From Squalus acanthias (taxonomy: Eukaryota), in NCBI GenBank assembly GCA_030390025.1, contig CM059432.1, forward strand, positions 52,392,001 through 52,456,000: a stretch of DNA of 64,000 nt, in the 5' to 3' direction. Made by a program: the position numbers and the translations under genes. The notes under the pieces are model-generated. The model was not told the DNA's origin, searched no databases, and saw only the letters and a program-made list of their open reading frames with translations. Each line of letters opens with the position of its first letter. The stretch's first letter is position 1. Shown here one piece after another: positions 18,436-54,988 of this stretch.

Positions 18436-18909
18436 TCATAAGAACATAAGAAATAGGAGCAGGAGTAGACCAATCGGCCCCTCGAGCCTGCTCCGCCATT
18501 CAATGAGATCATGGCTGATCTGATCCAACCTCAACTCTAAAGAACACAAGAAGTAGGAGCAGGACCAGGCCACTCGGCCCCTGGGCCCGCTCCGCCACCC
18601 ACAGGGCCTTGACCGATCCGAACTCAAACTCATGTCCAATTTCCAGCCCGCTCCCCGTAACCCCTAATTCCCTTTACTTTTAGGAAACGGTCTATTTCTG
18701 TTTTAAATTTATTTAATGAAGTAGCTTCCACAGCTTCCTGGGGTAGCAAATTCCACAGACCCACTACCCTCTGAGTGAAAAAGTTTCTCCTCATCTCAGT
18801 TTTGAAAGAGCAGCCCCTTATTCTAAGATTATGTCCCCTAGTTCTAGTTTCACCCATCATTGGGAACATCCTCACCGCGTCCACCCGATCAAGCCCCTTC
18901 ACAATCTTA
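18436..18909 (-). mobile_element. CR1 LINE 3' fragment with doubled 3' tail
   Basis: ORF 18630-18902 (RMFP..ETRTRGHNL..RRNFFTQRVV) followed by two tandem 3'-tail modules. Confidence 0.88.
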
Positions 18910-19618
18910 ATATGAAGCTAAATCTTCAGAGGTCTCGGCTAAGTCCCTGCCCTGGACCCCCAAGCTGGTTCAATTCTTTTGGCGAGTAGGCCAGTATGCC
19001 TCTTCTCACTCAAGAGTGCTGGTCCGCTGTTGGATTCCCAGGCCAGGCCCAGCATGGGAGTACCCTCGCCCAGCGATGCTCCCTCTAACCTGGTGACCAT
19101 GTTTGGGGTGGGTAGCGGCCTTGCTAAAATTAGGAGTGCAGGCTGGGACCGGCATATCTGGGACCCAGACTATTTCCTGGGTTTTCTGCTGCACTCCCAC
19201 CCGACTTATGTGCTGGAAGAGCCATGGCCTTTATTTTTATTTTTTCTAAAAAGTCTGCATTTATTGTGTCTGTATGATTGTGTGTCTCAATTTTAAGTGG
19301 AAAAGTTGGGTGTGCTAGTGAATGGAAAATGTTATCCAGTCACTACTTTAAACTTCCTGAGATCAATTATGGCACCAATCAGATGAAATACAGAGGAGCT
19401 CTACCTACATTGTATTTATAATGTGCCGAAATACCAACTGCAGGTCATCATCCTTTAATGCAGCATTGTGACATCTACCATGTGAGTCTTTTAATCTTTC
19501 CAATGGAAAAATAAATCTGGCAAATTTGAAGGTGGCATTTTGCCATGGGCTGATGCCCATTAGGATTTGAGTTGGCATCATTCCAAACTAATTTCACTTT
19601 GTATCCTTAAAAGTCATG

Positions 19619-22094: not shown

Positions 22095-22860
22095 ATGGGT
22101 GCTGTTATTGCCAGTTTCATTTGGATGGAGGAACACTTGGAGGAAGAGCAGCAGTAGCTGCACCTATTAAAAAACAACAGGTGAGGGGACTGCTGCAAAG
22201 AGGCCATACAAGGTGTACAGGCCCAGAGGCAGTTTCTTGGATCTATCTGAAGAGCAGTGCATCAGGAGGCTGTGGGTTCCCAGGCAGGCTGTTGCAAACC
22301 GCTGCAGCCTCCCGCAACAGGACCTACTGCCTGCTGGACCGGGGTTCATGCTTTGCCAATGGCTGTTAAAGTCACCACAACCCTTAACTGGCCCGTTCCA
22401 GTCTGCTACAGGGACATCAGCCGCATGTCCCAGTCTGCAGTGCACAGCTGCATTAAGCAGATCACCGACGCTCTGTTCGCTAGGACTAACCAGTACATCA
22501 CCTTCCTCATTGACCTCAACACGAGAGAGCTTGGGGATTTGCAACAATGGCTGCCTTCCCTCGTGTCCAGGGCCTGATTGACCGCACACGTGTTTCTATC
22601 AGTGCACCAGAACACCAGCCAGCAGAATTTGTGAATAGAAAAGGCTGCTATTCCATTAATTTCCAGGTAGTGTCCGATCATAGAAACAGAATAATGTAAG
22701 TTTGTACCCAGGCAACTGTCCCTATGCATTTATCCTGCAACAGTCTACCATCCCCTCAATATTTGGCCTTTATAGGAACGTGGCAGATGGCTGCTGGTGG
22801 ACAAGGGATATCCCCTACACATATGGCTCATAATACCCCTACACAACCTACCCCGCCTGA
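22095..22860 (+). pseudogene. Degenerate Harbinger (HARBI1-like) transposase
   Basis: Frameshifted segments LSEEQCIRRL, ALPMAVKVTTTLN, DISRMSQSAVHSCIKQITDALF, IDRTRV and DKGYPL, colinear with the intact transposase. Confidence 0.85.
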
Positions 22861-23810
22861 GCGGTTGAGGCCGCTAGGGGTGAAGAAGCAGACGTGCTGA
22901 CCACTTGAGAGACGGCAACATGTACTGCTCCCATTGTGCCTCTACCACTCCTGTGAGGCTGGGATTCATCACTTCCACTGATCTGTGGGTGAGCATACTG
23001 CAGAAGATGAGTGACTCCTTGGCAGGCTTTCCAATACCTCATAAAACTACATGTCTGAGGCCAGCAGTTTTCTTTGGCTGGGCCCCGATAGTCCTCATCT
23101 CTGTCCTGCTCAGCAGATATGGGAGAGGACCTCATCCTCTGACGAGCTGTCTCCTGGGCTGTCACTACCGCCAGTACCTGCTGCAATTCACTTGTGCTGG
23201 GTGTTTCACCACATTTAGACCTCTGCCTCACTATCTAACCCACGCGGAGTGACTGACAATCCCTGTGCTGGTGCGTGGGAGAGATGAAGCGTGTGACGGT
23301 ACATCTTCAGGAGGATTGTCCTTCTCCGAGATATCTTCTTCACAAGGCTCTTGATGCTGAGAAGGGCCTAGAGGAAAGAGAAATAGAAAAAGAGTTAGGA
23401 TGGCACTGAGAGGCTGAACATTAGCAGGAGACAATCTTGAGAATGCAGCTTGAAGTTGTGAAGGTTGCTGAATATTTGCTGAGGTTAATGAAGGGTTCTA
23501 AGTAATATGCAGACACCCAGCTCAGGTAATCCGCCAGCCTCGCTTTCCCCGATGCTCATGGCTTTGCCTGAGCCATTAAGCTCCAGGACTTCTTGCTCTG
23601 CTTGGGTGAGAGCTATAATGTTGGGTTCTCCTCCCCCGGGCCTGGTCCTCTCCCTGGCATTATGCACTGCTTTGTTCTGCAGAAAGACAAGGGGAGAGTT
23701 AGTGAGTGGCTGTTGAAAAGGTAAGTGGAGACGGGTAGGTTTTGTGCATATCGTGCATTTGGTGGGAGCTGAAGAAGAAGCTAGATGGAATGAGGATGGA
23801 GAGGTCATTG
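22860..23810 (-). pseudogene. Remnant Harbinger Myb-like partner gene exons (another family)
   Basis: Exon-2-like peptide NKAVHNARERTRPGGGEPNIIALTQAEQEVLEL after a CAG acceptor, homologous to AKLAHNRRQQQRSGGGRP. Confidence 0.6.
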
Positions 23811-25162
23811 AACCCCTTCCTACGCTAAAGACAAGTCTTGGCTAGATTTGTGGCAGTATGCTGGATGCTGCACAATCTGGTCATTTTGAGGGAACAGCCC
23901 TTGCCACCACCTGTCAGGCGGCTGCAGCATGGGTGGTGGAAGGCTGCTGACCTTCAATTGAGGAGACGGCAGATAGCCTTGGAGGATGACCTCGTGCAGC
24001 TCTGGGCCGAGAGGGGCCGGCTTCTGGGCTGGCTGGTTGACAGGCAACAACAAGGGAACTGGTGGAATGGTAGGGGTGAGAGCAGGAATGCTGTCATCTC
24101 AGAGAGGACAGGAGGTTCCTGTTCCATGGAGCCACTGCCACTCTCCTGGGGCAGCACCTCAGAAATCCTACTGATCTATTGGAGAACAAATAGATGGACT
24201 GCTGTGATGCCCTAGAAGCCCCTTCAAACAGTGGTATCCAGAGCCATGATGACAGCAGTCTGAGCTTGCAAGGCCGCAGTCTGAGATTCCAATGCAGCAC
24301 TCAGACCTTTGATGGAAGCTGTTTGTGCTGCAATGGAAGCTGAGATATCGGCCATCAGACGCTGCATCATGGTGGGTTTGACAGGTGTACTGATGGAAAT
24401 GACCGCCCGTTCCATGTTGGAACGGATAGGCTCCAAGCTCTGCACAAAGCCCTGAGCCAAGTTGGAGCTGGACTCTTCCATGCTACTTGACATTGAGCGC
24501 AGGCTTTCTGGCAAGCTTTCCAGTGCGCCAAGCATTTGGTTATGTACACCCATCACCCTTCGTCTGTAGCCTGGCCCATCGAAGTCCTCATCTGACTCCT
24601 CTGCAGCAAAACTAGTTTGCAACCTCGCCCTCCGGCGAGCTGGCACCTGTGCTATCCTTTCCCCCAGCCCTGGCTTCTGTGCACTTGTGCCCAGTGTCTC
24701 ACCACATGCAGATCCTTCCTCTATCCTAGCCTCAAAAATACATGCAGTGTCAGGCTCTGAGCTGGTAGCTGCAAGTGTAATATCGAGTGACGGTGTCTCG
24801 TCATCATCACCATCTTCTTCCTCTTCCCGCTCTGACTGGGAAGGTTCAAGTTCTTGGGTATCTGAAATAAAAAATGGACAAGAGTTGGGTTGTCGTGAGG
24901 GGAGAAGAGAAAGTAAGAAGTGTATGCTTACACCATCTTCAGCTTGTAAGTGAGAAGAGATTGTGGGATGAGGGAGAAGTGGGAAGAGAGAAAGAGAATT
25001 AGGAATGCAGATACCCTCATCATCGATCCCTGCAGTGCCGCCAGTGGCCACGGCCTCAGTGATGCTCCTTCCCATGATGCCAGCACTGTCTCCTCCATGG
25101 GGGTTAAAACGTGCAGGCACGCTTGTCCTCCCTCAGTTCTTTCCTGCTGCCTCCTGTTATGT

Positions 25163-26791
25163 TGTGGAGATGCCGGTGTTGGACTGGGGTGGACAAATGT
25201 GAGAAGTTGCACAACACCAGGTTATAGTCCAACAGTTTTATTTGAAATCACAAGCTTTCGGAGCGCTGCTCCTTCGTCAGGTGGAGTGAAGAGATGCATA
25301 TAGGCACAGCATATATAGTCAGAGAACACTGCCAGATGATTACTGTTAATCTTTCCAACTGCCCTTTATCACACCTCGGCAGAGAGATAATCACGGCAAT
25401 CAAAGGTGTGGATGGTGTCCAAACAGGTCAGTCAGGAAAACATTACATCAAAGACAATGTGGCAGATGCTGGGGTCTGTATGGAAATCAAAAAACTTTCT
25501 TTGCTGGTAATCACAGCAGGTCCGGCCGCATCCGTGTAGAGAGAACAAGCCAACGACGACTCGAGTCTGGATGACTCTACGTCAGGTGGGGTTACATGTA
25601 GCATGACATGAACCCAAGATCCCGGTTGAAGCCGCCCTCATGGGTGTGGAACTTGGCTATCAGTTTCTGCTCGACGATTTTGCGTTGTCGTGTGTCTCGA
25701 AGGCCGCCTTGGAGAACGCTTACCCGAAGATCGGAGGCTGAATGTCCTTGACTGCTGAAGTGTTCCCCGACTGGGAGGGAACACTCCTGCCTGGCGATTG
25801 TTGCGCGGTGTCCGTTCATACGTTGTCGCAGTGTCTGCATGGTCTCGCCGATGTACCATGCTCCGGGGCATCCTTTCCTGCAAGGTATGAGGTAGACAAC
25901 GTTGGCCGAGTCACATGTGTATGTACCATGTACCTGGTGGGTGGTGTCCTCACGTGTGATGATGGTATCTGTGTTGATGATCTGGCATGTCTTGCAGAGG
26001 TTGCCGTGGCAGGGTTGTGTGGTGTCGTAGTCACTGTTCTCCTGAAAGCTGGGTAATTTGCTGCGAACGATGGTCTGTTTGAGGTTAGGCGGCTATTTGA
26101 AGGCGAGTAGTGGGGGCGTGGGGATGGCCTTAGCGAGGTGTTCGTCGTCATCGATGACATATTGAAGGCTGCGAAGAACATGGCGTAGTTTCTCCGCTCC
26201 GGGGAAGTACTGGACGATGTAGGGTACTCTGTTGGTTGTGTCCCGTGTTTGTCTTCTGAGGAGGTCTATGCGATTTTTCGCTGTGGCCCGTCGGAACTGT
26301 CGATCGACGAGTCGAGCGTCATATCCCGTTCTTATGAGGGCGTCTTTCAGCATCTGTAGGTGTCCATCGCGTTCCTCCTCCTCTGAGCAGATCCTGTGTA
26401 TTCGCAGGGCTTGTCCATAGGGGATGGCTTCTTTAACGTGGTTAGGGTGGAAGCTGGAGAAGTGGAGCATCATGAGGTTGTCCGTGGGCTTGCGGTAGAG
26501 TGAAGTGCTGAGGTGTCCGTCTTTGATGGAGATTCGTGTGTCCAAGAATGAAACCGATTCTGAGGAGTAGTCCATAGTGAGTTTGATGGTGGGATGGAAC
26601 TTGTTGATGTTATCGTGTAGTCTTTTCAGTGATTCCTCTGTGGGTCCCTCACCCCCACCCCAAGGATACTGGATGTCGCTCCTTCTCTCCACATCTTGCA
26701 CCAAGGCCTCCAGTGCATCATCAGAAAACCTTGATGCATGCTCTCTTGCAGGTTCAGCCATCTTGACAAAATTCTTCAAAATCAATTAACT
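25163..26791 (-). mobile_element. 5'-truncated Penelope-like retrotransposon (RT C-terminus plus GIY-YIG)
   Basis: FHPTIKLT..SFLDTRI..LYRKPTD..SSFHP peptide and GIY-YIG part (YIGET.QTLRQRMNGH...EQKLI..FNRD); 11-bp TSD TCCTGTTATGT (25152-25162 and 26792-26802). Confidence 0.9.
25248..25283 (-). ncRNA. Minimal type I hammerhead ribozyme in Penelope terminal repeat
   Basis: Reverse complement reads CAC-CUGACGA-A-GGAGC-AGC-GCUCC-GAAA-GCUU-GUGA; perfect 5-bp stem II and palindromic stem III. Confidence 0.8.
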
Positions 26792-28203
26792 TCCTGTTAT
26801 GTGCCACCTTGTTCTGCAAGAAAGAGGGAAGTGTGACATTGAGTGTCCTGGAATATGTTTGGGTGATGTGGCTGTCATGGTTGAATGGCTACTAGGGTGT
26901 GACAGCTGTGAACTGTGGGTCCAAGGCCTGCAATAGTGCTAAATGTGTGAGGGTGAGGTAAACAATGTGAATTGAAGCGTTGAGTAATGATTGATAGGCA
27001 TAGTTGATAGGTGGTTGATGGGGGTGCAGTGAATTAAGCAGTGGATGAGGCTAGTGGTGCAGTTGGTAGAATATGCCATTTGAAGATTGATCTCATTCAC
27101 CTTGACATCTCGAGTCAGATCTGCATCCATGTTCTTGTTCTTGGAGCTACACTCCTGGCATTGACCTCCGCCACTATTTCCTCCCACTGCCTCCTAAGCA
27201 TATGACGGGAGGGCCTCCTGCCCCTCACCCCCACCCCAAGGATACAGGATGTCACTCCTTCTCTCCACATCTTGCACCAAGGCCTCCAGTGCATCATCAG
27301 AAAACCTTGATGCATGCTCTCTTGCAGGTTCAGCCATCTTGACAAAATTCTTCAAAATCAATTCACTTCCTGAGACCACATCCAGCAGCCATAATGCTCC
27401 CCTTTAAGAGGTGCAGGCTAGCTTTAGGTAGTGCTAGCCACTTGCAATATTGAAACCCTTGCTGATACATGCAGCCAATGAACAGTAGCACTGGCTGCAT
27501 GCAGGAATCATGTAAAATAACAGGCAACACCAATTTAACGTGCTGCCTGCAATGCAATGAACAGGCACGGGTTAATTGCGTACCTCGATCCCCATGCCCG
27601 TTTTCGGGGTTATCCAACTTAACCTCCTGTGTTTACTCCCTAGTTCATACAATGACATAAAAGTATATAGTAACTTGAGAAACCAATCCCACTATGGCTC
27701 CCAAGCACATTAAAGCCAGGAGGCTCTGGTATCTATTTGGTGCAGTAAAACTGTAGCCCAAAGCTGCATTTTAAGATCCAATAGATCATTTCGAAACTTA
27801 TAAATCTTTGTATGGAAATTTTTAATGCTGGAATAAATAGGACAGTTTGGGGTAAAAATTAGGTCGCGCCCCATTTGGGGCGCAAATATCGTCTGGACGC
27901 AAATATTAGCGCCTGGCGCTAATTATCGGCACTGACTGGAAACTTCACTTTTACCGCCCCGGGAGGTGAGTGGAGCGCTAAATCAGGCGCTGCACACCTG
28001 TCTTAAGGCGCAAAGGCCAAGGAGTGAGGCGCTAACTCAGCGCGCGAGCGCAGCTGCTGCCAGTTAGCGAGGGAACACAGACACACTGGCGCCGGCCACT
28101 TCTTAAAGCGGGGGGGGGCCAACTTGCTCCCCAGCCACACCCTGCTCATTGCAGCCTTGAATCTCGGCCTGGAGAGACCTGTGAATCCATTTTGCTGCCA
28201 AGC

Positions 28204-30084
28204 ATGGAGAGGGTGAGAGAACGCGCTCATCGCTTCACCGAGCGGGACTTGGATGCTCTGGTTGGCGCGGTGGAGCGCAGAAGATGTATGCTCTTCCCTG
28301 AGAATGGCAGGAGGCCTTTGCCACGCGAGTTCAGAAGAGTGTGGAGGGAGGTGGCTCAGAGCGTCTTCTCCAGGAGCATGGTGCCCAGGACCCATACTCA
28401 ATGCCGCAAAAAGTTCAACGACCTCACTCGGGTCGTCAGGGTGAGTGGCTTTTTCTCAATACCTCTCCATCCCTCCATCTCAACCTCACTCTATGGCCAG
28501 AGGGTCTTAAAACCCCAATGCACAACACTCATCCAACACCTATGGCCCTTTCATCAAACACACACACACATTCCACACTTTGCATACAGTAAGGGCTATT
28601 CACCTATGGGAGGCACATCAGGCAAGACCATGGCTGTATACAATAAGGGCTATTCACCTATGGGAGGCACATCAGGCAAGACCATGGCTGTATACAGTAA
28701 GGGCTATTCACCTATGGGAGGCACATCAGGCAAGACCATGGCTGTATATTTACTCAGATGCTGTCCTTTTTCTTACAGGCCAAGCTGGCGCATAATCGGA
28801 GACAGCAGCAACGGTCAGGTGGAGGGCGGCCTCAGCTGCAACCCCTCAGTGATCTTGAGGAGCGCGTCCACAGGATTGTGGCAAGCCGGGTGATCGGTTC
28901 CGTCGCCACTGGAGACGCCGACCCCGTTCTGGACAGCAATGGTAAGGTCATCACCTTTTTGTCCTCTGTCCTTCCACTTGTCCCTCACAACACCAGCCTT
29001 TGACACTTTCAATCCAACTTGCTAACTCGCTGCACTTATTCCTCCCTTACTGCCACCCTGTCCTCACGCTAAAGCCACTCTTGTACCTCCCTGCTTTCAG
29101 ATGGTGATTCACCAGCTGAGGAGACGGGCCCTGAAGCTGCCACTGGGAGTGATGCTGCAGCTGAGGAGAAAGAGGAAGCCGGAGCATCAGTGCCACCCTC
29201 TCCCGAGGAAGCCCATGCCCACACTGGGAACACGCCTTCCCTGGAGGGGACCAGGGGGGAAGGGTCTGATGAGGGTGAAGCTCCAGGACCCAGCGGGCTG
29301 CAGCAACGCCATGGGGGGGGGGGGTAGGGAAGAACGGGGGCCTTCTCCCCAGAGGGAGAGTATGCCAGACACTCCTACTGCAATGGACGCAGAGGAGGAG
29401 CGGCTGATCGCAGAAATGAACACCCAGGCGGTGGGCATGCACACTGAGCTCATGGGTGCAGTGGGAAGGGTGCCCGAATGCATTGAGTCACTGGCAAGGA
29501 GTGTGGAGCACTTCGCTGTAGCACAGGCGGATGCCACACTAACGCTTAGTGCTGCAATTCAGTCACTGGCTGCCGTGATCCCATCTCTGACTGCTCTCAT
29601 ACAGACTCAGATTGAGGCCACGCGAGCACAGACTGCTGCCAACCTCGATGGTTCGTGCACATGTCCCTGGGGCTGTCACCGCGCCGCAGCAGGCCAGCAA
29701 TCTGTTCTCCAGCAGATTGCTCCGGATGCTGAAGTGCTGCCCCATGGGAGTGCCAGTGTGTCGGGCGAGCAGGGAGTTGCTGTCCTCTCTCACGATGACA
29801 GCATTCCTGCTGCCAACACTGTCACTTCTCCACTGCACTTGCCACCGCCTGTAGGACAGACTGCTGCCGCCCATGCAGAGTTGGTGCAGTCTGCAGCCGG
29901 GCCCTCCAGGCCCAGAACTGGTCGAGGCCGTCCTTCAGGGGCATCTGCAGTGTCAGGGTCTGACGAGCAGCAGCCTTCCACCAGCCTTGCTGCAGCCACT
30001 GAGGTCCCATTACGGAGGAGCAGTAGGGTTAGAAGGGGGGAAGTGCGCAAGGGAAGGAGATCACCCTCGAAGGGCAAAAAGTAG
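28204..30084 (+). pseudogene. Harbinger Myb/SANT-like DNA-binding partner gene, copy 1, frameshifted in exon 3
   Basis: Exons 28204-28440, 28779-28941 and 29101-30084 with GT-AG introns. Myb/SANT motif RFTERDLDALV..WREVA..QCRKKFNDL. A G12 run at 29313-29324 (G5 in copy 2) puts TAG 29325-29327 in frame, giving ~208 aa. Confidence 0.85.
28585..28746 (+). repeat. 54-bp tandem repeat x3 in intron 1 of the Myb-like gene
   Basis: Unit TACAGTAAGGGCTATTCACCTATGGGAGGCACATCAGGCAAGACCATGGCTGTA; two units in copy 2 (37246-37353). Confidence 0.95.
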
Positions 30085-30382
30085 GAGGTGTGACAAAATG
30101 CTGGTCATTTTTTTATTAAAGGTCGAGGTTCATGGTCCAACTTTTGTTTAGTGTTTTGGACATTATCTCCAGGTTGTGAGAACCAGTTATGTTATTGACT
30201 GTTTTTTTGTGTTTATTTCTATGAGTTTGTCATGAGGAATTGACACACACAGAGTTTGTAAAATAAATAAGTTTCTGTATTCAAAATATACATGGTTGGT
30301 GGTTGGAATTATTGGTGCCTTGGCTGGCTTAGGGGTTACGTGCTGGCTGGGTTCATTAATGTTGTTAGCAATGGCTGGGGCC

Positions 30383-31543
30383 CTAGAAGCGGCTTGCTAT
30401 TAGCCGTTGACGGACGGCCCTTGCAGTTTGACCATTGTGGGCCGCCCTCCCGCCTTGGTGCTGCTGATGATCATCGTCCTCGTCCTCTTCCTCCTCTTCC
30501 TCCTCCTCCTCTGGTGGTGCTCCAAGGCCTGGTGGCATTGGCTGGGTCCTGATGATTGCCATGTTATGCAACATGCAGCACACGACTACGAAGTTCGATA
30601 CTCGCTCAGGCGAGTACTGCAGGGCTCCTCCAGAATGGTCGAGACAGCGGAACCGTTGCTTCAGCACGCCGATTGTGCGCTCAATTATGTTCCTGGTAGC
30701 TTGATGTCTCTCATTGTACCGCAGCTCAGCAGGGGTGTTGGGCGTACGGAGCGGTGTCATCAGCCAGGTGCTCAATGCATACCCCTTGTCCCCGAGAAGC
30801 CAACCAACTGGCTGATGCGGTGCCTCGAAAAGTTCTGCCACAGTAGTCTGGCGCAGGATAAAAGCATCGTGGCAGCTGCCAGGATACTGGGCATTGACAG
30901 CGAGTATCAGCTGTCTGTGGTCACAGACCAACTGGACATTCAAGGAATGGAACCCCTTTCTGTTCCTGAATTCCTCGGCATTCTCATGCGGAGCACGCAA
31001 AGCCACATGCGTGCAGTCAATGGCGCCCTGCACCATGGGGAAGCCCGCTACCCTCGCAAAGCCCAGAGCGCGGTCACGCTGCTTGTCTGGGGTCATGGGG
31101 AAAGAGATGAACTCTCGTCTCCTTTTAAAGAGGGCATTTGTGACCTGCCGGATGCAGCAATGCACCGCGAACTGGGAGATATTGGCGAGGTCCCCAGCAG
31201 CAGCTTGAAATGAGCCAGTAGCGTAAAAGTTCAAAGCCACTGTGACCTTCACTGCCACCGACAGAGACGTCCTGGACCTCAGTTGAGGCTGCAGATCTGG
31301 CTGCAGCAGGTGGCAGAGCTCAGTGACCACCTCCTTGCTGAATCGCAGCCTTCGCAAACACAGCTCCTCGGACATATGGATGTAGGAGAGCTGTTCACGA
31401 TATACCCTGGGAGGGTAAGCTCTCCTGTACATACGCCTGATGGCCCTCCTCCGTCTGGCCATCATTGCCACTCTCTCTCTGCGTCTCTGTATCCTCCGAT
31501 TCAGCTGGAGCAGGACGACGCCCCCAATCAGTGCAGCCCCCAT
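30383..31543 (-). CDS. Harbinger DDE transposase (HARBI1-like family), 386 aa, intact
   Basis: Uninterrupted ORF from ATG 31543 with motifs GAIDCTH, NRKGFHSLNVQ, PGSCHDAFI, LLGDKGY, IIERTIGVLKQRFRCL and CCMLHN, plus an acidic tail. Confidence 0.95.
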   Translation of the reverse strand: MGAALIGGVVLLQLNRRIQRRRERVAMMARRRRAIRRMYRRAYPPRVYREQLSYIHMSEELCLRRLRFSKEVVTELCHLLQPDLQPQLRSRTSLSVAVKVTVALNFYATGSFQAAAGDLANISQFAVHCCIRQVTNALFKRRREFISFPMTPDKQRDRALGFARVAGFPMVQGAIDCTHVALRAPHENAEEFRNRKGFHSLNVQLVCDHRQLILAVNAQYPGSCHDAFILRQTTVAELFEAPHQPVGWLLGDKGYALSTWLMTPLRTPNTPAELRYNERHQATRNIIERTIGVLKQRFRCLDHSGGALQYSPERVSNFVVVCCMLHNMAIIRTQPMPPGLGAPPEEEEEEEEEDEDDDHQQHQGGRAAHNGQTARAVRQRLIASRF

Positions 31544-33609
31544 ATTCTCTTTGCAAGCAAAGTAATGAAGGACAGCAACTAAAGTACCAGCGAAGTTAGG
31601 ATCAATAGGCAAAACTACCTCACAAAGCGTTGAGTCAATGTAGAAGTCTCTCTTTCTCTCTCTCCGAATCTCTCTCTCTCTCTCAGAACGAGTGGTGCAA
31701 AAATGTCGACCACAGAAAAAGACAGGAAGAGGCCCCCTTTAAATAGCGCCCCCCCCAGCCCCACAGCGATTGATAGCGTTCCAGTCTTCCGGTCGTTGGA
31801 AGCGCCAGGCGGTAAGGCAGGGGGCGCCACTCAATTTCCGCTCCGGGGCGCCACAAGGGCGTTGTACCATGGAATGACGTCACAATCTGCGCGCGCAGGT
31901 GGTCGCAGCGGTAAGTTTTAGCGCCGCCGCACAATCTCTAGTTAAGTTCCCGAGCGGCACAAACATCGCTGCGCCCGGGCGTTAGCGGCTTTGCGCCCCA
32001 TTAGCGCCCTCTTAAGGCGCTAACGGGAGGCGCAACCAACTGAATTTTTACCCCTTTGTCTGTGCTTCCTTAACATGAAAAAAGTATTGTCTGGGGAGTA
32101 GAGTTCTGTGCATGTCTCCAAGGATGGTCTGCTAAATGCATATTGCACTCCGCAGACTGATTCAAGACCAAGGGCTGCAGTATAACTGAGGGAATTAGCT
32201 TCGTGGAGTTACTGAGTTCCATGCGGAAGCCAAATTAGCATCAGTAGAAATGAATCCATTAAGCCAGATACTTCAACAAATTTGCCATTTAAGCTGAGTG
32301 TGTTAAAGAGCAATATATTGTATTGTATATTGTCTACACAGACATTTAAAAACACTTTTATTGTTTTGCGAACAAACAATCTTATCCAGCTGCCAATTTG
32401 ATCACTGGGTCATCGATGAGATCAGCAGTCCTTCCTGGTTTAATTTTACATTTTTATTAACGCTACCGTGTTAAACCAGCCATCGCGTATAGTGGGCAAA
32501 TCATGTTCCCACAAACATGACCGCTATAAGCGATAGGGACTGTACCAGAATTGTGTCCAGCACTGTTAAAATAAACATTCAAAGCAGGGATTGCAACGCC
32601 CACTTAAGAGGTTTATTCCCGCTTTAAATAGGGCCTCAGGCGATCTGACAGAAATTGCATGCATAAAGTGGGCAGTCTGTCAGAGTCCCGACACGATCAG
32701 GTGGACAGGCCGGCAATCAGATTGAAATGAGGCCTGAGAGTTAAAATCACCTTTGCCTCACTCCGGCGACATCATGGGGGCTACCTGCTCAGCCGCCCAC
32801 TCCCGTTGCCTGCTCAATTTATGGCCCAAGTTGAAAACGGAATCAATGTGTTGCTGTAGGATTTAAAAGGAAAGCATTGATCATCATCATCATCATCACC
32901 ACCTTTACTGCAGCAAACAAAGTTCAGAGCAGAAGGAATGTCTCGCAGGTCTGCAGGAGAACAGAGAGCCCCCAGATTCACAAATGCAGCAGTGGCCAAT
33001 TACAGTGTCCCCATGAACTGAGGTCAACTAACTCAGCACAGGGCAGGGTTTGAAACGGATGATTTGAGCCTCCCTGGTCTGTACCAGACTCAGCATTTTC
33101 CTCTAAACCTTTAGAGGGTTGTTTCTTTATGATTTTGACACATTGTTTGTCCATCATTTAAAAAAACCAATTACAATAGAGTTTATGTAAATTAGTGACA
33201 TGTTTGGATTAGAAAGGCTCCATTAACAAATTATCTAGTGATTTTAAAATGTGATAACTTATTGGAAGCAGAAAGAAATTACTAATTTGCTGGAAGCAGA
33301 CATCAATCAATGTAAATTTTGTTCAGAGTAGCAAGGAGATCATATGGCACCAGTCTTAAATCATTGTGTTATCTAAGCTAGTTTGAAATATGCCAGTGAT
33401 TTATCTGAGTACCTGTCACAAATCTATCTCATGAGTCGTTTAATGAGTCTTTGTCTCAAAATAGCTCAGAACATTTGAGCCTGTACAGACTAGTCCTTGT
33501 AGTCCATTGGATAAAGTACACAAAACAACATTCTGGGTAGAATGTTCCTGATGCTTTTATTTATTTCTCTCACTATTTCCCCCCTCCTCTCTGCCTAAAG
33601 GTGTTATCT

Positions 33610-33955
33610 CCTTGCTGTGGTACAGTTCATTGGGTGCTGCTTGCCTTTAGCTACCTCCTCCAATGACCACTATTTTTGTTTTAGCTGAACAGTGAGTGTT
33701 GACAGGCTATACAATGATTGGAGGTCACAGCCAAGCCCAATGTTGTCCTCACACAATGTCCACATGTGAGCACACACAGCAATGGTTAATTTTTCCCTCT
33801 TTAACCTAGGGGTACTGAAGACAATTGTATCTCCCTGTTTGCTGCCTTGGCTGAGATCAGCTAGCACAGTACAGACCAGGGATCATACCTGGGATCTTCT
33901 TGGTCTGTGCGCTCAGCTACTCATTAGATATACTTGCTGGGCCATCGGGGGGGAG
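33610..33955 (-). mobile_element. LF-SINE-like SINE
   Basis: Reverse complement CAGACCAAGAAGATCCCAGGTATGATCCCTGGTCTGT..TAGCTGATCTCAGCC..TAGCCTGTCAACACTCACTG matches the LF-SINE layout as recalled. Confidence 0.65.
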
Positions 33956-34519
33956 TTTCCTCTTGATTTCATTCAAAGCTATAAAAAAAATATATACATT
34001 TGGTTCCTATCACAATTTTGTGATTTCAGAACGGAGCAAAATAATTATATTGTTACTGTATAGACATTTTCAGACTTTTTGAAATAATCAGAAGACATCT
34101 TTGTTCTAAATACTGCATCTCTGCTACCATTTTAATTTTCTGAACTGGCTATTACTTGTGCACACTGCTACTTTAAAGACCAATGCAAGCACTGTTATGG
34201 TGAGCCCTAATCATGTACAAAGCTACTTTGCATTATGGAAAGTTCAGTTTGTATCATCAGTATCAAAACTGAATTCTCAGAATTAGGGTGATAACACAAT
34301 TCCTTCCGAAGAGATCGCTGTAGAAATTTCTTGGGATAGGAATAACCGCCTAAAACCATCAGTGGATATCATTAGCATCAATTGTGCTACCTCTTTTGTT
34401 CATATATGATTGCCTGAATAAAGTTAATTCTGAAATCAAATTGGGAGGAAATGTTGTTTCCTCTCTATATTCATAAAGCCACAAAAAAAGAACAGCATAG
34501 GAACACAAAGTACAAGAGT

Positions 34520-35077
34520 AAAGGAATAACAAGAAATTTAAACAGGACATGGTTGGACCACAGTTAGAGTACTGTGTACAGTTTTGCATGTCCCATTATA
34601 AAAAGGACGTTAAAGTCACAGAGAATGTACAGTGTAGGTTCAACAGGATGATGCTGAGGATAGTAAATTAGTTATGAGGAAAGACATGAGAGAGTGGGAT
34701 TGTTTCCACTGGAGCCCAGATGGCTATAAGGAGTTTTAATACAAGTTTTTTAAATTATGAAGAGTTTTGATAGACTGAATAGGCAAAGACTATTTCCTTT
34801 GGCTGGGGAGTCAGAGTTGAGGGGTCATCAACTCAAAATTATCAGCAAAGAGTGAGGAGAAAGGTTAGGAAAAACTTTATTACACGGAGGGTTTTTGGAG
34901 TATCAAATGCTTTGACACAGGTTGAGGCAGAGACTATTCCATTTTTATAGGAAAAATTGGATAAATATTTGAAGTAGATGAAGGTGGGAGTGAGCAGGGC
35001 CTTGGAATTAGATTTGGATTGCTCTGACAAAGAGCCGGCATAGACACAATGGGCCAAATGGCCTCCATCTGTGCTGT
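34520..35077 (+). mobile_element. Degenerate CR1 3' fragment
   Basis: Decayed VGPQLEYCVQF..., RKNFITRRV and GGGCCAAATGGCCT 3' UTR motif. Confidence 0.75.
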
Positions 35078-36864
35078 AAACCTCAGGGAGGCCACAACCA
35101 CAGGTAGGTTTCTTAAAAAAATTCTTACCTGAATGTGGAGCCAGGAGGAGCAGGATTGCTCCTTCTGACTCCACAGGAGTTCCAAAGACATTGCCGGCCG
35201 CCGCTCGGCTTCCCCCCATCACCTCTCCCCCTCCCAGGACCTACCTGAGGGTCACTGCCGGCATAGTAGTGGCCCAGAATTGATGTCTGCTTTGCCAGCA
35301 AGCTACCTGCGGAGCCGGTCTAATTTAAAAGAGGCCAGAGATCCAATTTTGATCGAGCCCTCGGACTTACCTGTTCTGCCGCAGGGATCGTCTCCTGCGT
35401 CCAGTTTGTGTCAGCAGGCTGCGCTATCGAATTTCTACTCCTTGATATCTGCTGCAGGGCACATTGTCCTCAAATTTGCTGATGCAGATGTGTAAGTGCT
35501 TGGTCAGAAGATTAGGGACAGGAGGAAGGTTCTCTCTGGAACAGGGAGATGGACCCCAGTGAAGGCAGCTCAGGGCTAATTGAAAGTTCCAACTATAAGT
35601 GCCAACTTCATGGGGGTCGATTTTAACTGTTCCTATCCAGATAGTTTACTGGATATATTTCTGGGACTCCTGCCATCCAATAATACCCCACTTAAGAGGC
35701 CATTCTTCATGTGTGAGGGTAGGTAGTGAGTGTAGGCAGATTGCCTACTCACGGAAGACATAGAGATGAACTCAATTCTGTTCTCATCTGAAATCCACAC
35801 ATACACAGTTTCCAGCATGGGTCACTGTGCAATGATCAGGAATGCTGGTATAGCTCCCTCTCTGTATCCCAAAAATACTAAGGCGGAAAAATTCGTTAGG
35901 TTAGCGTCTCCCATTAGCGCCTGCAGAGGGCGGTAACGGGCCCTGATGCAGTAGTGCCGGGGCGAGGTGAATCCAGTGCCGCACGGCAAATCCCCCATTG
36001 CGCTGCCGGTACGAGGAACTGCCGGGGATTTCAACGGCAGGCAGATTGTGACGTCAGTGAGCATACAACGCTCACCGGGCGCCCGATCTGCAAAATTCAT
36101 TGTCACCACTTTGCGCCTCGACCAGACAGCGACAGGGAGAGCAGGCGCACAGCTGACGGAAGCTGGCTCCAGAGACATTTATTGTTCAAAGATTCAAACC
36201 GCTACACTTGGCAACATTAATGGGGGCTGTACTGGCATGCCACCTCGCCCTCCAGGATCTACGGTGGAGGGAGCGTAGGCAACGAGAAATACGGGAACAT
36301 GAGTGCAGAGGGATGAGGAGGGACATCAGGGCTCTCACCAGGAGAACTTACCCTCCGAGGGTATTCCGACAGCATTTCTCCTACCTTCAATTAAGCGAGG
36401 AGCAGTGTATTAGACGGCTCCACATCACCAAGGTGGTGGTCACAGAACTCTGCCACCTCCCCCAAACAGACCTCCAGCCTCACAGCAGGATGACTTAAAC
36501 CCCAGGGGGGAAAAATTAGGTCGCGCCCCATTTGGGGCGCAAATATCGTCTGGACGCAAATATTAGCGCCTGGCGCTAATTATCGCCACTGACTGGAAAC
36601 TTCACTTTTACCGCCCCGGGAGGTGAGTGGAGCGCTAAATCAGGCGCTGCACACCTGTCTTAAGGCGCAAAGGCCGAGCAGTGAGGCGCTAACTCAGAGC
36701 GCGAGCGCAGCGCAGGTGCTGCCAGTTAGCGAGGGAACACAGACACACTGGCGCCGGCCAGTTCTTAAAGCGGGGGGGGCCAACTTGCTCCCCAGCCACA
36801 CCCTGCTCATTGCAGCCTTGAATCTCGGCCTGGAGAGACCTGTGAATCCATTTTGCTGCCAAGG

Positions 36865-38684
36865 ATGGAGAGGGTGAGAGAACGAGCTCAGCGCTTCACC
36901 GAGCGGGCCTTGGATGCTCTGGTTGTCGCGGTGGAGCGCAGAAGATCTATACTCTTCCCTGAGAGTGGCAGGAGGCCTTTGCCACGCGACTACAGAAGAG
37001 TGTGGAGGGAGGTGGCTCAGAGCGTCTCCTCCAGGAGCATGGTGCCCAGGGCCCATGTTCAATGCCGCAAAAAGTTCAACGACCTCACTCGGGTCGTCAG
37101 GGTGAGTGGCTTTTTCTCAATACCTCTCCATCCCTCCATCTCAACCTCACTCTATGGCCAGAGGGTCTTAAAACCCCAATGCACAACACTCATCCAACAC
37201 CTATGGCCCTTTCATGAAACACACACACACATTCCACACTTTGCATACAGTAAGGGCTATTCACCTATGGGAGGCACATCAGGCAAGACCATGGCTGCAT
37301 ACAGTAAGGGCTATTCACCTATGGGAGGCGCATCAGGCAAGACCATGGCTGTATATTTACTCAGATGCTGTCCTTTTTCTTGCAGGCCAAGCTGGCGCAT
37401 AATCGGAGACAGCAGCAACGGACAGGTGGAGGGCGGCCTCAGCTGCAACCCCTCAGCGATCTTGAGGAGCGCGTCCACAGGATTGTGGCAAGCCGGGTGA
37501 TTGGTCCCGTCGCCACTGGAGACGCCGACCCCGTTCTGGACAGCAATGGTAAGGTCATCACCTTTTTGTCCTCTGTCCTTCCACTTGTCCCTCACAACAC
37601 CAGCCTTTGACACTTTCAATCCAACTTGCTAACTCGCTGCACTTATTCCTCCCTTACTGCCACCCTGTCCTCACGCTAAAGCCACTCTTGTACCTCCCTG
37701 CTTTCAGATGGTGATTCACCAGCTGAGGAGACGGGCCCTGAAGCTGCCACTGGGAGTGAAGCTGCAGCCGAGGAGGAAGAGGAAGCCGGAGCATCAGTGC
37801 CACCCTCTCCCGAGGAAGCCCATGCCCACACTGGGAACACGCCTTCCCTGGAGGGGAGCAGGGGGGAAGGGTCTGATGAGGGTGAAGCTCCAGGACCCAG
37901 CGGGCTGCAGCAACGCCATGGGGGTAGGGAAGAACGGGGGCCTTCTCCCCAGAGGGAGAGTATGCCAGAGACTCCTACTGCAATGGACGCAGAGGAGGAG
38001 CGGCTGATCGCAGAAATGAACACCCAGGCGGTGGGCATGCACATTGAGCTCATGGGTGCAGTGGGAAGGGTGCCCGAATGCATTGAGTCACTGGCAAGGA
38101 GTGTGGAGCACTTCGCTGTAGCACAGGCGGATGCCACACTAACGCTTAGTGCTGCAATTCAGTCACTGGCTGCCGTGATCCCATCTCTGACTGCTCTCAT
38201 GCAGACTCAGATTGAGGCCACGCGAGCACAGACTGCTGCCAACCTCGATGGTTCGTTCACATGTCCCCGGGGCTCTCACCGCGCCGCAGCAGGCCAGCAA
38301 TCTGTTCTCCAGCAGATTGCTCCGGATGCTGAAGTGCTGCCCCGTGGGAGTGCCAGTGTGTCGGGCGAGCAGGGAGTTGCTGTCCTCTCTCACGATGACA
38401 GCATTCCTGCTGCCAACACTGTCACTTCTCCACTGCACTTGCCACCGCCTGTAGGACAGACTGCTGCCGCCCATGCAGAGTTGGTGCAGTCTGCAGCCGG
38501 GCCCTCCAGGCCCAGAACTGGTCGAGGCCGTCCTTCAGGGGCATCTGCAGTGTCAGGGTCTGACGATCAGCAGCCTTCCACCAGCCTTGCTGCAGCCACT
38601 GAGGTCCCATTACGGAGGAGCAGTAGGGTTAGAAGGGGGGAAGTGCGCAAGGGAAGGAGATCACCCTCGAAGGGCAAAAAGTAG
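36865..38684 (+). CDS. Harbinger Myb/SANT-like DNA-binding partner protein, ~458 aa, intact, three exons
   Basis: Exons 36865-37101, 37386-37548 and 37708-38684; GTGAGT/CAG and GTAAGG/CAG splice sites keep frame. N-terminal Myb/SANT-like domain, acidic linker, Ala/Gln-rich helical region and basic C-terminus. Confidence 0.88.
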
Positions 38685-38996
38685 GAGGTGTGACAAAATG
38701 CTGGTCATTTTTTTATTAAAGGCCGAGGTTCATGGTCCAACTTTTGTTTAGTGTTTTGGACATTATCTCCAGGTTGTGAGAACCAGTTATGTTATTGACT
38801 GTTTTTTTGTGTTTATTTCTATGAGTTTGTCATGAGGAATTGACACACACAGAGTTTGTAAAATAAATAAGTTTCTGTATTCAAAATATACATGGTTGGT
38901 GTTTGGAATTATTGGTGCCTTGGCCGGCTTAGGGGTTGCGTGCTGGGTTCATTGATGTTGTTAGCAATGGCAGAAGCCATTTCCACAGCAGGGGCC

Positions 38997-40157
38997 CTAG
39001 AAGCGGCTTGCTATTAGCCGTTGACGGACGGCCCTTGCAGTTTGACCATTGTGGGCCGCCCTCCCGCCTTGGTGCTGCTGATGATCATCCTCCTCGTCCT
39101 CTTCCTCCTCTTCCTCCTCCTCCTCTGGTGGTGCTCCAAGGCCTGGTGGCATTGGCTGGGTCCTGACGATTGCCATGTTATGCAACATGCAGCACACAAC
39201 TACGAAGTTGGATACTCGCTCAGGCGAGTACTGCAGGGCTCCTCCAAAATGGTCGAGACAGCGGAACCGTTGCTTCAGCACACCGATTGTGCGCTCAATG
39301 ATGTTCCTGGTAGCTTGATGGCTCTCATTGTACCGCAGCTCAGCAGGGGTGTTGGGCGTACGGAGCGGTGTCATCAGCCAGGTGCTCAATGGATACCCCT
39401 TGTCCCCGAGAAGCCAACCAACTGGCTGATGCGGTGCCTCGAAAAGTTCTGCCACAGTAGTCTGGCGCAGGATAAAAGCATCGTGGCAGCTGCCAGGATA
39501 GTGGGCATTGACAGCGAGTATCAGCTGTCTATGGTCACAGACCAACTGAACATTCAAGGAATGGAACCCCTTTCTGTTCCGGAATTCCTCGGCATTCTCA
39601 TGTGGAGCACGCAAAGCCACATGCGTGCAGTCAATGGCGCCCTGCAGCATGGGGAAGCCCGCTATCCTCGCAAAGCCCAGAGCGCGGTCACGCTGCTTGT
39701 CTGGGGTCATGGGGAAAGAGATGAACTCTCGTCTCCTTTTAAAGAGGGCATTTGTGACCTGCCGAATGCAGCAATGCACCGCGAACTGGGAGATATTGGC
39801 GAGGTCCCCAGCAGCAGCTTGAAATGAGCCAGTAGCATAGAAGTTGAGAGCCACTGTGACCTTCACTGCCACCGACAGAGACGTCCTGGACCTCAGTTGA
39901 GGCTGCAGATCTGGCTGCAGCAGGTGGCAGAGCTCAGTGACCACCTCCTTGCTGAATCGCAGCCTTCGCAAACACAGCTCCTCAGACATATGAATGTAGG
40001 AGAGCTGTTCACGATATACCCTGGGAGGGTAAGCTCTCCTGTACATACGCCTGTTGGCCCTCCTCCGTCTGGCCATCATTGCCACTCTCTCTCTGCGTCT
40101 CTGTGTCCTCCGATTCAGCTGGAGCAGGACGACGCCCCCAATCAGTGCAGCCCCCAT
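38997..40157 (-). CDS. Harbinger DDE transposase (HARBI1-like family), 386 aa, intact
   Basis: Same catalytic motifs as copy 1; 10 amino acid differences in 386 by manual comparison. Confidence 0.95.
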   Translation of the reverse strand: MGAALIGGVVLLQLNRRTQRRRERVAMMARRRRANRRMYRRAYPPRVYREQLSYIHMSEELCLRRLRFSKEVVTELCHLLQPDLQPQLRSRTSLSVAVKVTVALNFYATGSFQAAAGDLANISQFAVHCCIRQVTNALFKRRREFISFPMTPDKQRDRALGFARIAGFPMLQGAIDCTHVALRAPHENAEEFRNRKGFHSLNVQLVCDHRQLILAVNAHYPGSCHDAFILRQTTVAELFEAPHQPVGWLLGDKGYPLSTWLMTPLRTPNTPAELRYNESHQATRNIIERTIGVLKQRFRCLDHFGGALQYSPERVSNFVVVCCMLHNMAIVRTQPMPPGLGAPPEEEEEEEEEDEEDDHQQHQGGRAAHNGQTARAVRQRLIASRF

Positions 40158-41478
40158 AGTCTCTTTGCAAGCAAAGTAATGAAGGACAGCAACCAAAGTA
40201 CCAGCGAAGTTAGGATCAGTAGGCAAAACTACCTCACAAAGCGTTGAGTCAATGCAGAAGTCTCTCTTTCTCTCTCTCCGAATCTCTCTCTCTCTCTCAG
40301 AACGAGTGGTGCATAAATGTCAACCACAGAAAAAGACAGGAAGAGGCCCCCTTTAAATAGCGCCCCCCCCAGCCCCACAGCGATTGATAGCGTTCCAGTC
40401 TTCCGGTCGTTGGATGCGCCAGGCGGTAAGGCAGGGGGCGCCACTCAATTTCCGCTCCGGGGCGCCACAAGGGCGTTGCACCATGGAATGACGTCACAAT
40501 CTGCGCGCGCAGGTGGTCGCAGCGGTAAAGTTTAGCGCCGCCGCACAATGTCTAGTTAAGTTCCCGAGCAGCGCAAACATCGCTGCGCCCGGGCGTTAGC
40601 GGCTTTGCGCCCCATTAGCGCCCTCTTAAGGCGCTAACGGGAGGCGCAACCAACTGAATTTTTACCCCCAGATCCCTTTTGCTCACCACATGCCCATCAT
40701 ACCATCCCTGTGTCATGCCATATCACAGCATCCTCCTGGGCGCAAAGGTGAAATGAGAGAGATCACAAAATATTGTAAAATCTGCTAATAAATTCATGCA
40801 TAAACATATCACACGTATCACATTCATTCTAATAACTAATGATCCTTGTGCCTGCCATAGTTGAATAGCTGTCATTGTGTGCAAGGCGTGAGATGTGGGT
40901 GTGAGTGTTGCTAGGTAGAGATTGTTGGAGGATGAGTGCTGGGGGTGTGGTGTTTTGGGCAGTGTGTGAAGCTTGTGGTACAGATGCTGGTATGTAGCAT
41001 CTGTTGAAGCATTCAATCACCCTGACCACCCGACTGAGGTGGATTTGCCATGAGCACACCTGCTTCAGTCCTTCGGCTCCTTCTCCTTGTTGTGCTTCTC
41101 TTTGCAGAGGCAGCTGCACAGCCAGCAATGCTGAGAATGAGGTGCTGCAGTATCAATGAACCTCCCCTTTAAGTACTGGGAAAAGCCTGTGGCAATGAAG
41201 AGTTGAGAGTAGACTGCACCCGATATTGGTCCACCCTTTGAGTGCAACATCACTGAGCTAGGCCTTTAAGACTTTATTTAGCGCCCCAATCATTTCTTTG
41301 AGCAGTGAGAATGAATTTTGTGTGCAGTCTAAAGCATTAGCGCCTGGCGCTAATTCTCAAACTTTTCTAAAGATACCGCCCATTCCTGGGCTATAATGAA
41401 TTTCTAGTCCTAAGAACCCTACCACTTCCCTGGCAAGATGAGCTAGCTCAGCACATATCAGAGACTGAGCCATCTAAC

Positions 41479-43629: not shown

Positions 43630-44020
43630 TTATCTCATTGAAACTTATAAAATTCTGACAGGACTGGACAGACTAGATGCAGGAAGGATGTTCCCGATGG
43701 TCGGGGAGTCCAGAACCAGAGGTCACAGTCTAAGGATAAGGGGTAAGCCATTTAGGACAGAAATGAGGAGGAATTTCTTCACCCAGAGAGTGGTGAACCT
43801 GTGGAATTCTCTACCACAGAAGGCAGTAGAGGCCAATTCATTAAATATATTCAAGAAGGAGTTGGATATATTTCTTAAGGCTAAAGGGATCAAGGGATAT
43901 GGGGAGAAAGCAGGGACAGGGTTCTGAATTTGGATGATCAGCCATGATCGCATTGAATGGCGGAGCAGGCTAGAGGGGCCGAATGGCCTACTCCTGCTCC
44001 TATCTTCTATGTTTCTATGA
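43630..44020 (+). mobile_element. CR1 LINE 3' fragment
   Basis: MFPMVGESRTRGHSLRIRG...RRNFFTQRVVNLWNSLP followed by the 3' UTR and TTCTATG tail. Confidence 0.9.
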
Positions 44021-44654
44021 AGTGAAATCTTGGAGGACACAGATTTTGAAGTCAGTGAAACTGAGGAATAGGGAGACAGTAAGGATACAGGGGAGAAAGG
44101 AGAGAAGGACTTTGTGTGGGACATAATGTGGGCAGCAGAGTTCTGGATGAATTAGAGTTTATGGAGTTTGGGGGAATGACAAGTAGGGCGTTGAAAAAAA
44201 TGGAGTCCGGAGGTGATAAGGGCATCATTGAGGGCTCCTACGACAGTGGGGATGAGATAGAGATGGAGGTGGGTGCTCTTTTAGAAGTACTAGTAGACAC
44301 TCTTGTACGGATGTGGAGTTTGAAGCTCAGCTCAGGGCTGAGCACGACACTGAGACCATACACCTTTGGGTTGGTCTTGAATGAACATCCAAGAAGGGAG
44401 ATGGAATCAGGGGCTAAGGCACAGTTTCTGACACTGACTGAACAAGATGGCTTTGGTCTTGCTAATGTTGAGCTGCAGAAAGTTCTGGTTCATCCAAAAC
44501 TTGATGTCAGATGGGTAGTCGAACAGTAGAGTGCCAATCATGGAATCAAGGTAGTGGTGGAGAAGTAAAGTTGCATATTGTTGGCAAACATGTGACTGCT
44601 GATGGGGATTGTCACTGAAGGGCAACATATAGATGACAAATAAGATGACGCCAC

Positions 44655-54340: not shown

Positions 54341-54988
54341 ATTTTCTTTTGAAGCTTGACCACAATCTACCACTTTCTCGGGGGTGGGGAGGAGGGGGGA
54401 AGGGGGAGTGGAGCCTGGCACCTCACTGGGCTGGCGATCTTCTGCCTGCATTTCTGGGGTGTTTGGTTGGGAGGGGTGAGGCTGTAGATGTGCCCCCACA
54501 CCTGCTGAATGCCTGCTCCTGCAAACTTCTCCCCCTGGAAATGCAAACTTCGGTGCGGTCACTGGCAGAGTTCCATGGTGGGTGTAATCCCAGTGTTACT
54601 TCTAGGAACATGCCCCTGTAAATTTTTGGGTTCTACATAGGCACATCTGCTCCTCATGGCTGCACAGGAATGTTACAACATTTTTTTAAAGTAACCTATT
54701 GGTGGTTAGATATCTTTCTGGCATTGGCCACAGGACATTGGTTTCTGAAATCCCGATCGGCCTCCTCTCCCCGTTAACACTCCACCTGGGCCTTACCTTC
54801 AGGCCATTGTTGGCGAGGCCAAAATGAGCAAGCTGCCTGTGGAGGCGCAACAGGCACCAGTAATGAGGCGATGCCCAATTTTGGGCCAGCCTTGGGCCTC
54901 CCGGTTGGGGCATGCGCTCGCTGCATGATTCCCATTTCAGGACCGAAAACCGGACTAAAAAAATTTCCACCCCATTTCACCCACTGGT

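Follow-up and report, generated by a model that had tools for sequence, protein, structure and literature searches.

Two full-length Harbinger elements

A 64,000-nucleotide stretch of the Squalus acanthias genome (contig CM059432.1 of assembly GCA_030390025.1, positions 52,392,001 to 52,456,000; here called the window) contains, by self-comparison, one long repeat pair, at positions 27849 to 32054 (copy 1; 4,206 bp) and 36506 to 40668 (copy 2; 4,163 bp). Both are full-length two-gene transposons on the forward strand, in the same orientation and 4,451 bp apart, and every sequence criterion that we applied assigns the element to the PIF/Harbinger transposons of the vertebrate type. We consider, with a probability of roughly 0.85, that the two copies are ordinary, separately inserted members of two subfamilies of a huge two-gene Harbinger family, that the pair has no special role, and that its proximity is due to chance. 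A preliminary description of the window had reported two ~4.2-kb two-gene copies in the same orientation about 4.4 kb apart, copy 1 with perfect terminal inverted repeats (TIRs) and a truncated Myb-like gene and copy 2 with an open 458-amino-acid (aa) Myb-like gene, and all of this was borne out.

Copy 1 belongs to a subfamily with the left end GGGGT. It is flanked by the target site duplication (TSD) TTT (27846 to 27848 and 32055 to 32057), and its left 12-bp TIR (27849 to 27860) matches the right TIR (32043 to 32054) at 12 of 12 positions. Copy 2 belongs to a subfamily with the left end GGGGG and is flanked by the TSD CAG (36503 to 36505 and 40669 to 40671); its TIRs (36506 to 36517 and 40657 to 40668) match at 11 of 12 positions, with G for T at position 5 (36510). 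Inside the elements, divergence between the two is 2.05%, with 84 substitutions (46 transitions, 17 at CpG) and six insertions or deletions. The differing flanks, TSDs, and subfamilies rule out an origin of the pair by tandem duplication, and the two are independent insertions, as had been proposed. Intron 1 of the Myb-like gene carries a 54-bp tandem repeat, with 3.1 units in copy 1 (28584 to 28748) and 2.0 units in copy 2 (37242 to 37351).

The transposase

The transposase gene is located on the reverse strand at 30383 to 31543 in copy 1 and at 38997 to 40157 in copy 2. As previously described, both 386-aa frames are open, and their products differ at 10 residues, including S304F. The Pfam domain DDE_Tnp_4 (PF13359) was identified in both (E values, 2e-40 and 4e-40), D176, D252, and E288, which presumably form the DD35E triad, are present in both, and D226 is present in copy 1. 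No match to the transposase was found among solved structures at an E value of 0.01. The best 74 of the 120 homologues listed were all shark or ray proteins annotated as "putative nuclease HARBI1," with a top identity of 66 to 67%.

Each window copy has two private replacements, S279R and L331I in copy 1 and V171L and S304F in copy 2. Of 66 open family transposases, 65 keep the serine at position 304, as do 27 of the 29 motif-matching homologues (of 120). The S-to-F change is private to copy 2 and probably harmful, in agreement with its earlier interpretation as damage. Arginine at residue 279 is private to copy 1 and absent from 40 motif-matching homologues.

The Myb-like gene and its transcripts

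The Myb-like gene is encoded on the forward strand in three exons, at 28204 to 28440, 28779 to 28941, and 29101 to 30084 in copy 1 and at 36865 to 37101, 37386 to 37548, and 37708 to 38684 in copy 2. Exon 1 contains a Myb/SANT domain (Pfam Myb_DNA-bind_5, PF13873) in both copies, with an E value of 1e-9; no Pfam family was identified in exon 3. In copy 1, exon 3 is truncated at 208 aa by a run of 12 guanines (G12; 29313 to 29324) that is followed by an in-frame TAG (29325 to 29327), and in copy 2, a G5 run (37920 to 37924) keeps the frame, giving the 458-aa product. The own subfamily of copy 1 mostly has G8 and that of copy 2 has G5, and G9, G11, and G12 tracts recur across several branches of the family, which points to a slippage hot spot or to assembly error.

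Intron 1 is supported by its GT and AG ends and by homology across the join of exons 1 and 2: a shark or ray protein named HARBI1 (P0007) aligns gap-free with the first 113 aa of the spliced product, at 47% identity. A protein that retains intron 1 is unsupported as a conserved product, its length varying over 133 family copies (211, 182, 200, and 229 aa, among others). In a weak test, no longer homologues of exon 1 were found at an E value of 1e-12 among 201 candidates.

The two predicted splice junctions were checked in contigs of four sequencing runs from two studies, labelled with organisms A and B; none of the listed runs is recorded as RNA, so that these four are of RNA is a guess, and the contigs give no strand, expression level, or source copy. 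The intron 2 join (GT..AG; 37548 to 37708) was present in contigs of all four probable RNA runs, and the predicted intron 2 is confirmed for the family. The second junction fared differently: none of the listed contigs of these runs contained the intron 1 join, and contigs run unspliced over the border of exon 1 and intron 1. As rare forms drop out of such contigs, this does not speak against the join. Since the contig letters are often those of other family copies, the transcripts are evidence at the level of the family and are not assigned to the window copies.

In one contig of run X9 (depth, 7), the exon 2 acceptor is joined to a GT donor close to the left end of the element (36620 to 37384), a form that would skip the Myb-domain exon. 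In addition, runs X16, X17, X18, and X20, labelled with organisms D to G, contain about 0.4 of the words of the window, and other samples of the same studies contain none; these words may come from diet or contamination.

Size and composition of the family

Exact-pattern counts in the 3.71-Gb assembly, with reversed patterns as controls, gave 11,857 left ends (2,332 of the copy 2 type and 9,525 of GGGGT types), 7,545 right ends, 7,324 transposase-core matches, and 4,127 Myb exon 2 matches; the reversed patterns gave 0. The family is very large, and the two window elements are ordinary members of it. Among the 126 left ends listed in the first 31.7 Mb of contig C1, 15 belonged to full-length copies, 32 to elements of ~0.9 kb, and 2 to others, and 77 were unpaired. 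Retrieval of 20 unpaired left ends yielded 5 full-length copies, 13 copies of an 893-bp derivative, 1 element of 773 bp (L119), and 1 without a right end (L109). The noncoding 893-bp derivative (L076 to L120) is the commonest form, with about two-thirds of the left ends sampled. Its left 369 bp and right 400 bp are 85 to 87% and 93 to 95% similar, respectively, to copy 1, its ~125-bp middle has no match in the window, and all three left-end variants occur in it.

The sample for further comparisons comprised 133 full-length copies. The sets picked by similarity are biased toward little-changed copies, and a position-picked set (n = 20) is biased only by the requirement of an exact left end. In addition to L109 and L119, self hits (L001, L031, L121, L151, and L179), copies whose left end was missing (L059 and L060), and L144, in which both ends were not found, were excluded.

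Both genes are open in 63 of the 133 copies and in 8 of the 20 position-picked copies (95% interval, 19 to 64%). By group, the counts are 23 of 29 copy-2-like, 10 of 27 copy-1-like, 21 of 27 L067-like, and 0 of 28 L068-like copies. For three to four thousand two-gene copies, extrapolation suggests about a thousand with both frames open. That the family proteins act in trans is shown indirectly, because amplification extended to the noncoding 893-bp derivative and to a subfamily whose copies share a Myb frameshift.

Subfamilies and proximity of the pair

Alignment of the 133 copies resolved 87 differences between copies 1 and 2, of which 50 are diagnostic of subfamilies, 19 are private to copy 1, 16 are private to copy 2, and 2 are of other kinds. 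The nearest relatives of the window copies lie on other contigs (L039 on C10, at 33 substitutions, and L003 on C25, at 32), and each window copy ranks its neighbor only 48th and 51st of 132 in similarity. Neither copy was derived from the other. Gaps of 8.7 kb or less separated 4 of 99 neighboring pairs among the first 100 transposase matches listed, with ~2 expected, and about 125 pairs so close are expected by chance genome-wide.

The preliminary description had proposed that the two copies complement each other in trans, copy 1 supplying the transposase and the ends and copy 2 the Myb-like protein, that their closeness may reflect local hopping, and that they form a reconstructable system. 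The truncated Myb frame of copy 1 and the private S304F change of copy 2 at a conserved serine would fit such a division of labor, and trans action is real for the family. Local hopping is nevertheless unsupported: the subfamilies of the two differ, the nearest kin are on C10 and C25, and chance alone would yield close pairs. The many copies with both frames open are self-sufficient, so no complementation by the window pair is needed, and reconstruction is superfluous where natural copies are available. The T-to-G change in the left TIR of copy 2, earlier counted as a lesion, is an ancestral trait of a successful subfamily, present in 29 of 29 copy-2-like loci and in 2,332 exact left ends, and amplification of the G-bearing subfamily excludes it as damage. 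Proximity is also irrelevant to diffusible proteins. We therefore regard a locally hopped, complementing pair as very improbable, and ordinary membership of the two copies in the family remains our reading.

The best sign of real trans-complementation lies at the family level, away from the window. In Myb exon 3 of the youngest subfamily seen (L068 and L122 to L150, on several contigs), 87 bp are duplicated, with two G tracts. In a sample of 28 copies chosen by likeness to a frameshifted copy, the Myb frame ends at 253 aa after a G10 tract in 26 and the transposase frame is open in 25. Position-picked relatives of this subfamily (L070, L074, and L075) have G9 and an open 488-aa Myb frame. On these frames, the subfamily looks like one amplified on a borrowed Myb protein or one with a toggling G tract. 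Some copies are mosaics: L067 combines Myb codons of the L068 and L117 groups with a copy-1-like transposase, and L110 is partly the reverse. Variation between subfamilies is lower in introns (0.6 to 2.1%) than in exons (3.8 to 7.1%).

Target sites

An exact 3-bp TSD flanks 144 of the 169 elements with intact ends; 16 TSDs have one mismatch, 7 have two, and 2 have three. The consensus of 119 distinct sites is AAACAC-TAA-GTGTTT, which is palindromic before symmetrization, with A at position -5 and T at position +5 near 90%. The duplicated triplet consists mostly of A and T (ATA/TAT, 25; TAA/TTA, 23; AAA/TTT, 21), and CAG/CTG occurs in 4 of 119. Both window target sites rank in the top 0.1 to 0.4% of the 15-mers of the window on the family matrix. 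Repeated insertion in both orientations was observed at one dispersed-repeat site and in an 8-bp tandem repeat (L005, L010, L024, L057, and L142; L009, L055, L065, L102, and others).

Age, selection, and present mobility

Mean pairwise divergence is 0.99% among copy-1-like copies (n = 20), 1.18% among copy-2-like copies (n = 30), and 0.65% among L068-like copies (n = 8), and subfamilies differ from each other by 2 to 5%. Private changes amount to ~0.4% per window copy. At the mutation rate of the epaulette shark, 7e-10 per base per generation (PMC10587355), this corresponds to 5.5 to 6.6 million generations, or 3 to 33 million with the interval given in that paper, a rough estimate with a per-generation rate from another species. 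The low divergence agrees with the earlier portrayal of the copies as young and recently mobile, but their private changes represent millions of generations.

The ratio of replacement changes to expectation (N/expected, class corrected) for private coding changes is 0.89 in 66 open transposases and 1.03 in 49 open Myb genes. Among changes common to at least four copies, replacements are depleted in the transposase (0.32; Fisher P = 0.0009) and in the first 115 Myb codons (0.23), and the Myb tail has an excess (3.5) that is not significant. In codons 116 to 458, shared changes comprise 28 replacements and 4 silent changes that cluster near residues 279 to 312. The direction is opposite to that in the transposase, but tests for positive selection on this C-terminal part did not reach significance (Fisher P = 0.11; binomial P = 0.07). 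All of these figures are allele counts against the majority, not mapped on a tree, and the copies are not independent. Because private changes are near neutral and shared transposase changes are poor in replacements, the window copies have likely been decaying since insertion. The proposed collection of genomic copies with the ratio of nonsynonymous to synonymous changes (dN/dS), carried out here as divergence and N/expected on the 133 copies, gave a divided answer, namely, depletion of replacements among shared changes in the transposase and the first Myb codons and near neutrality of private ones.

Purifying selection on the transposase, as seen between subfamilies, would also be accounted for if the subfamilies had arrived separately, by horizontal transfer or introgression. 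The depletion of replacements in between-subfamily changes (transposase, 0.32; Myb domain, 0.23) is consistent with this, as are runs labelled with other organisms that carry 0.40 to 0.52 of the window words and contigs of organism B that match copy 2 over 610 nucleotides with 2 differences. However, the best homologue in the protein collection, outside the genome, is only 67% identical, and the wide occurrence of relatives in sharks and rays is that expected of long vertical residence. Organism B is perhaps a close relative, and selection on the source elements also explains the pattern. Separate arrivals are therefore improbable.

Besides the roughness of the dating, several points weigh against regarding the pair simply as decaying members of a family of the past. 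Open frames alone would not demonstrate function. TSDs are mismatched in 25 of 169 elements (e.g., L006, L015, L063, L075, and L084), i.e., in 15%, versus ~3% expected from point mutation at the divergence of the family; the excess may stem from ectopic recombination, gene conversion, or chimeric assembly, and together with the mosaic copies, the mismatches suggest that gene conversion blurs ages based on divergence. L053 and L058, which have identical flanks, read G12 and G9, and the G12 run of copy 1 may reflect misassembly and not decay. Finally, independent insertions of the younger subfamily differ by only 1 (L123 and L136), 6, and 7 substitutions in 4.3 kb, and the whole family may not be extinct.

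The last point is the core of another explanation, by which the family transposes in the germ line today through its youngest subfamily, with the Myb protein provided by other copies and with the window copies as older, movable passengers. L123 (on C18) and L136 (on C5), 1 substitution and one 54-bp unit apart, stand in opposite orientations relative to a 96%-identical flanking repeat and are therefore separate insertions. The lower divergence of the youngest subfamily (0.65%, versus 0.99% and 1.18% for the window subfamilies), intron-2-spliced family transcripts in all four probable RNA runs, and intact ends in most copies also argue for present mobility. However, only 2 pairs among the 133 copies, themselves a sample of several thousand, are at most two substitutions apart, and one of these (L117 and L118) shares its right flank and is a duplication. 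A single substitution corresponds to ~170,000 generations at the epaulette shark rate (PMC10587355), and near identity could also arise by gene conversion. We consider present-day transposition possible, if on the whole unlikely. A broader version appears more doubtful still: in a naturally active Harbinger with about a thousand open copies, subfamilies would still turn over under purifying selection on the transposase and the Myb domain, with a diversifying Myb tail, and the youngest subfamily, its own Myb gene silenced through a slippery G tract, would spread on the Myb protein of sister subfamilies. If this were true, natural copies would be a ready gene transfer system with a preference for the 15-bp palindrome and with no need for reconstruction.

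Host relic and surroundings

The host of copy 2 is an older Harbinger element, internally deleted and on the forward strand (35882 to 41410; 1,363 bp without copy 2), a multicopy repeat with a TAA duplication (35879 to 35881 and 41411 to 41413) and a transposase remnant near 36313 to 36510. At all seven paralogous empty sites of copy 2, the triplet is present once (CAG in six, CCG in one). In runs X12 and X8, contigs pass directly from 36499 to 40666, without copy 2. This was rejected as evidence of an empty allele because paralogues of the multicopy host element lack the insertion, and the X12 record differs at 10 of 161 letters.

The window is dense in sequences of the Harbinger superfamily. 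Older relics with transposase and Myb-like fragments are located at 2259 to 2612, 3815 to 5132, 19945 to 21619, 22171 to 24553, 26646 to 27372, and 52484 to 54100, and a 151-bp segment is duplicated at 26646 and 27222 (98% identity). Another dispersed repeat has four copies (16293 to 16958, 18436 to 18914, 43632 to 44021, and 54988 to 55638), 70 to 85% alike over long matches. On the reverse strand, frames at 14512 to 15213 and 26096 to 26600 resemble, by eye, endonuclease and reverse transcriptase fragments of long interspersed nuclear elements.

Comparison with known systems

By analogy with Harbinger3_DR and mPing/Pong, the spliced Myb-like protein would bind the ends of the element and bring the DDE transposase there. 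The transposase would then excise the element and insert it at the 15-bp palindrome AAACAC-WWW-GTGTTT (W, A or T), duplicating the central 3 bp, and both proteins would be supplied in trans by the many copies with both frames open. The window pair itself is of little weight; the interest lies in the family, with its abundance of open copies, the Myb frameshift shared by its youngest subfamily, and its possible present-day activity.

The proteins of sharks and rays that carry the name "putative nuclease HARBI1" likewise have a PF13359 transposase, with 45 to 67% identity in the best matches. These names are automatic, and the gene studied here sits in a multicopy transposon with TIRs and TSDs, unlike domesticated HARBI1, which is single copy. 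Harbinger is reported as absent from the elephant shark in PMC9179366, which describes other cartilaginous fish as still to be analyzed, and the abundance of a two-gene Harbinger of low divergence in a cartilaginous fish bears on that question. A search of the open-access literature for Harbinger families of elasmobranchs found no paper that describes one; the word occurs once each in the genome papers on the whale shark and the grey reef shark, whose supplements may list such repeats.

The published precedent for an abundant intact vertebrate Harbinger is Harbinger-Snek of sea kraits, with 269 fully intact copies reported in L. colubrina (PMC8437027). According to that report, Harbinger-Snek likewise is a massive vertebrate expansion with two genes and with single-gene and noncoding derivatives, and RNA covers both genes, activity being suspected only. 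Its arrival in an amniote is argued there to have been horizontal (PMC8437027), whereas homologues of the family described here are widespread in sharks and rays.

In architecture and target, the family resembles the zebrafish elements Harbinger3_DR and Harbinger3N_DR, which have a DDE transposase, a Myb-like gene, a 3-bp TSD, and a nonautonomous derivative. Harbinger3_DR was reportedly reconstructed by Sinzelle et al. in 2008, whereas the present family offers many natural copies in which both frames are open. Both proteins are described as required for transposition in Harbinger3_DR and Ping/Pong, and the target preference of vertebrate Harbinger elements is given as 15 bp (PMC2836001). The reported Harbinger3_DR target, AAACACCWGGTCTTT (PMC3016246), scores 13.6 bits on our family matrix, with a median of 9.0 for real sites. 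Its flanks (AAACAC ... GTCTTT) are nearly equal to those found here (AAACAC ... GTGTTT), but its triplet is CWG (PMC3016246), which was not the rule in our family, with mostly W-W-W and only 4 of 119 CAG/CTG. This suggests that the 15-bp target flanks are conserved between the zebrafish and shark elements and the duplicated triplet is not. The natural open copies could be used to test the two-protein mechanism, known in vertebrates from the reconstructed zebrafish element, and if activity were shown, a natural vertebrate Harbinger would join the short list of active vertebrate DNA transposons.

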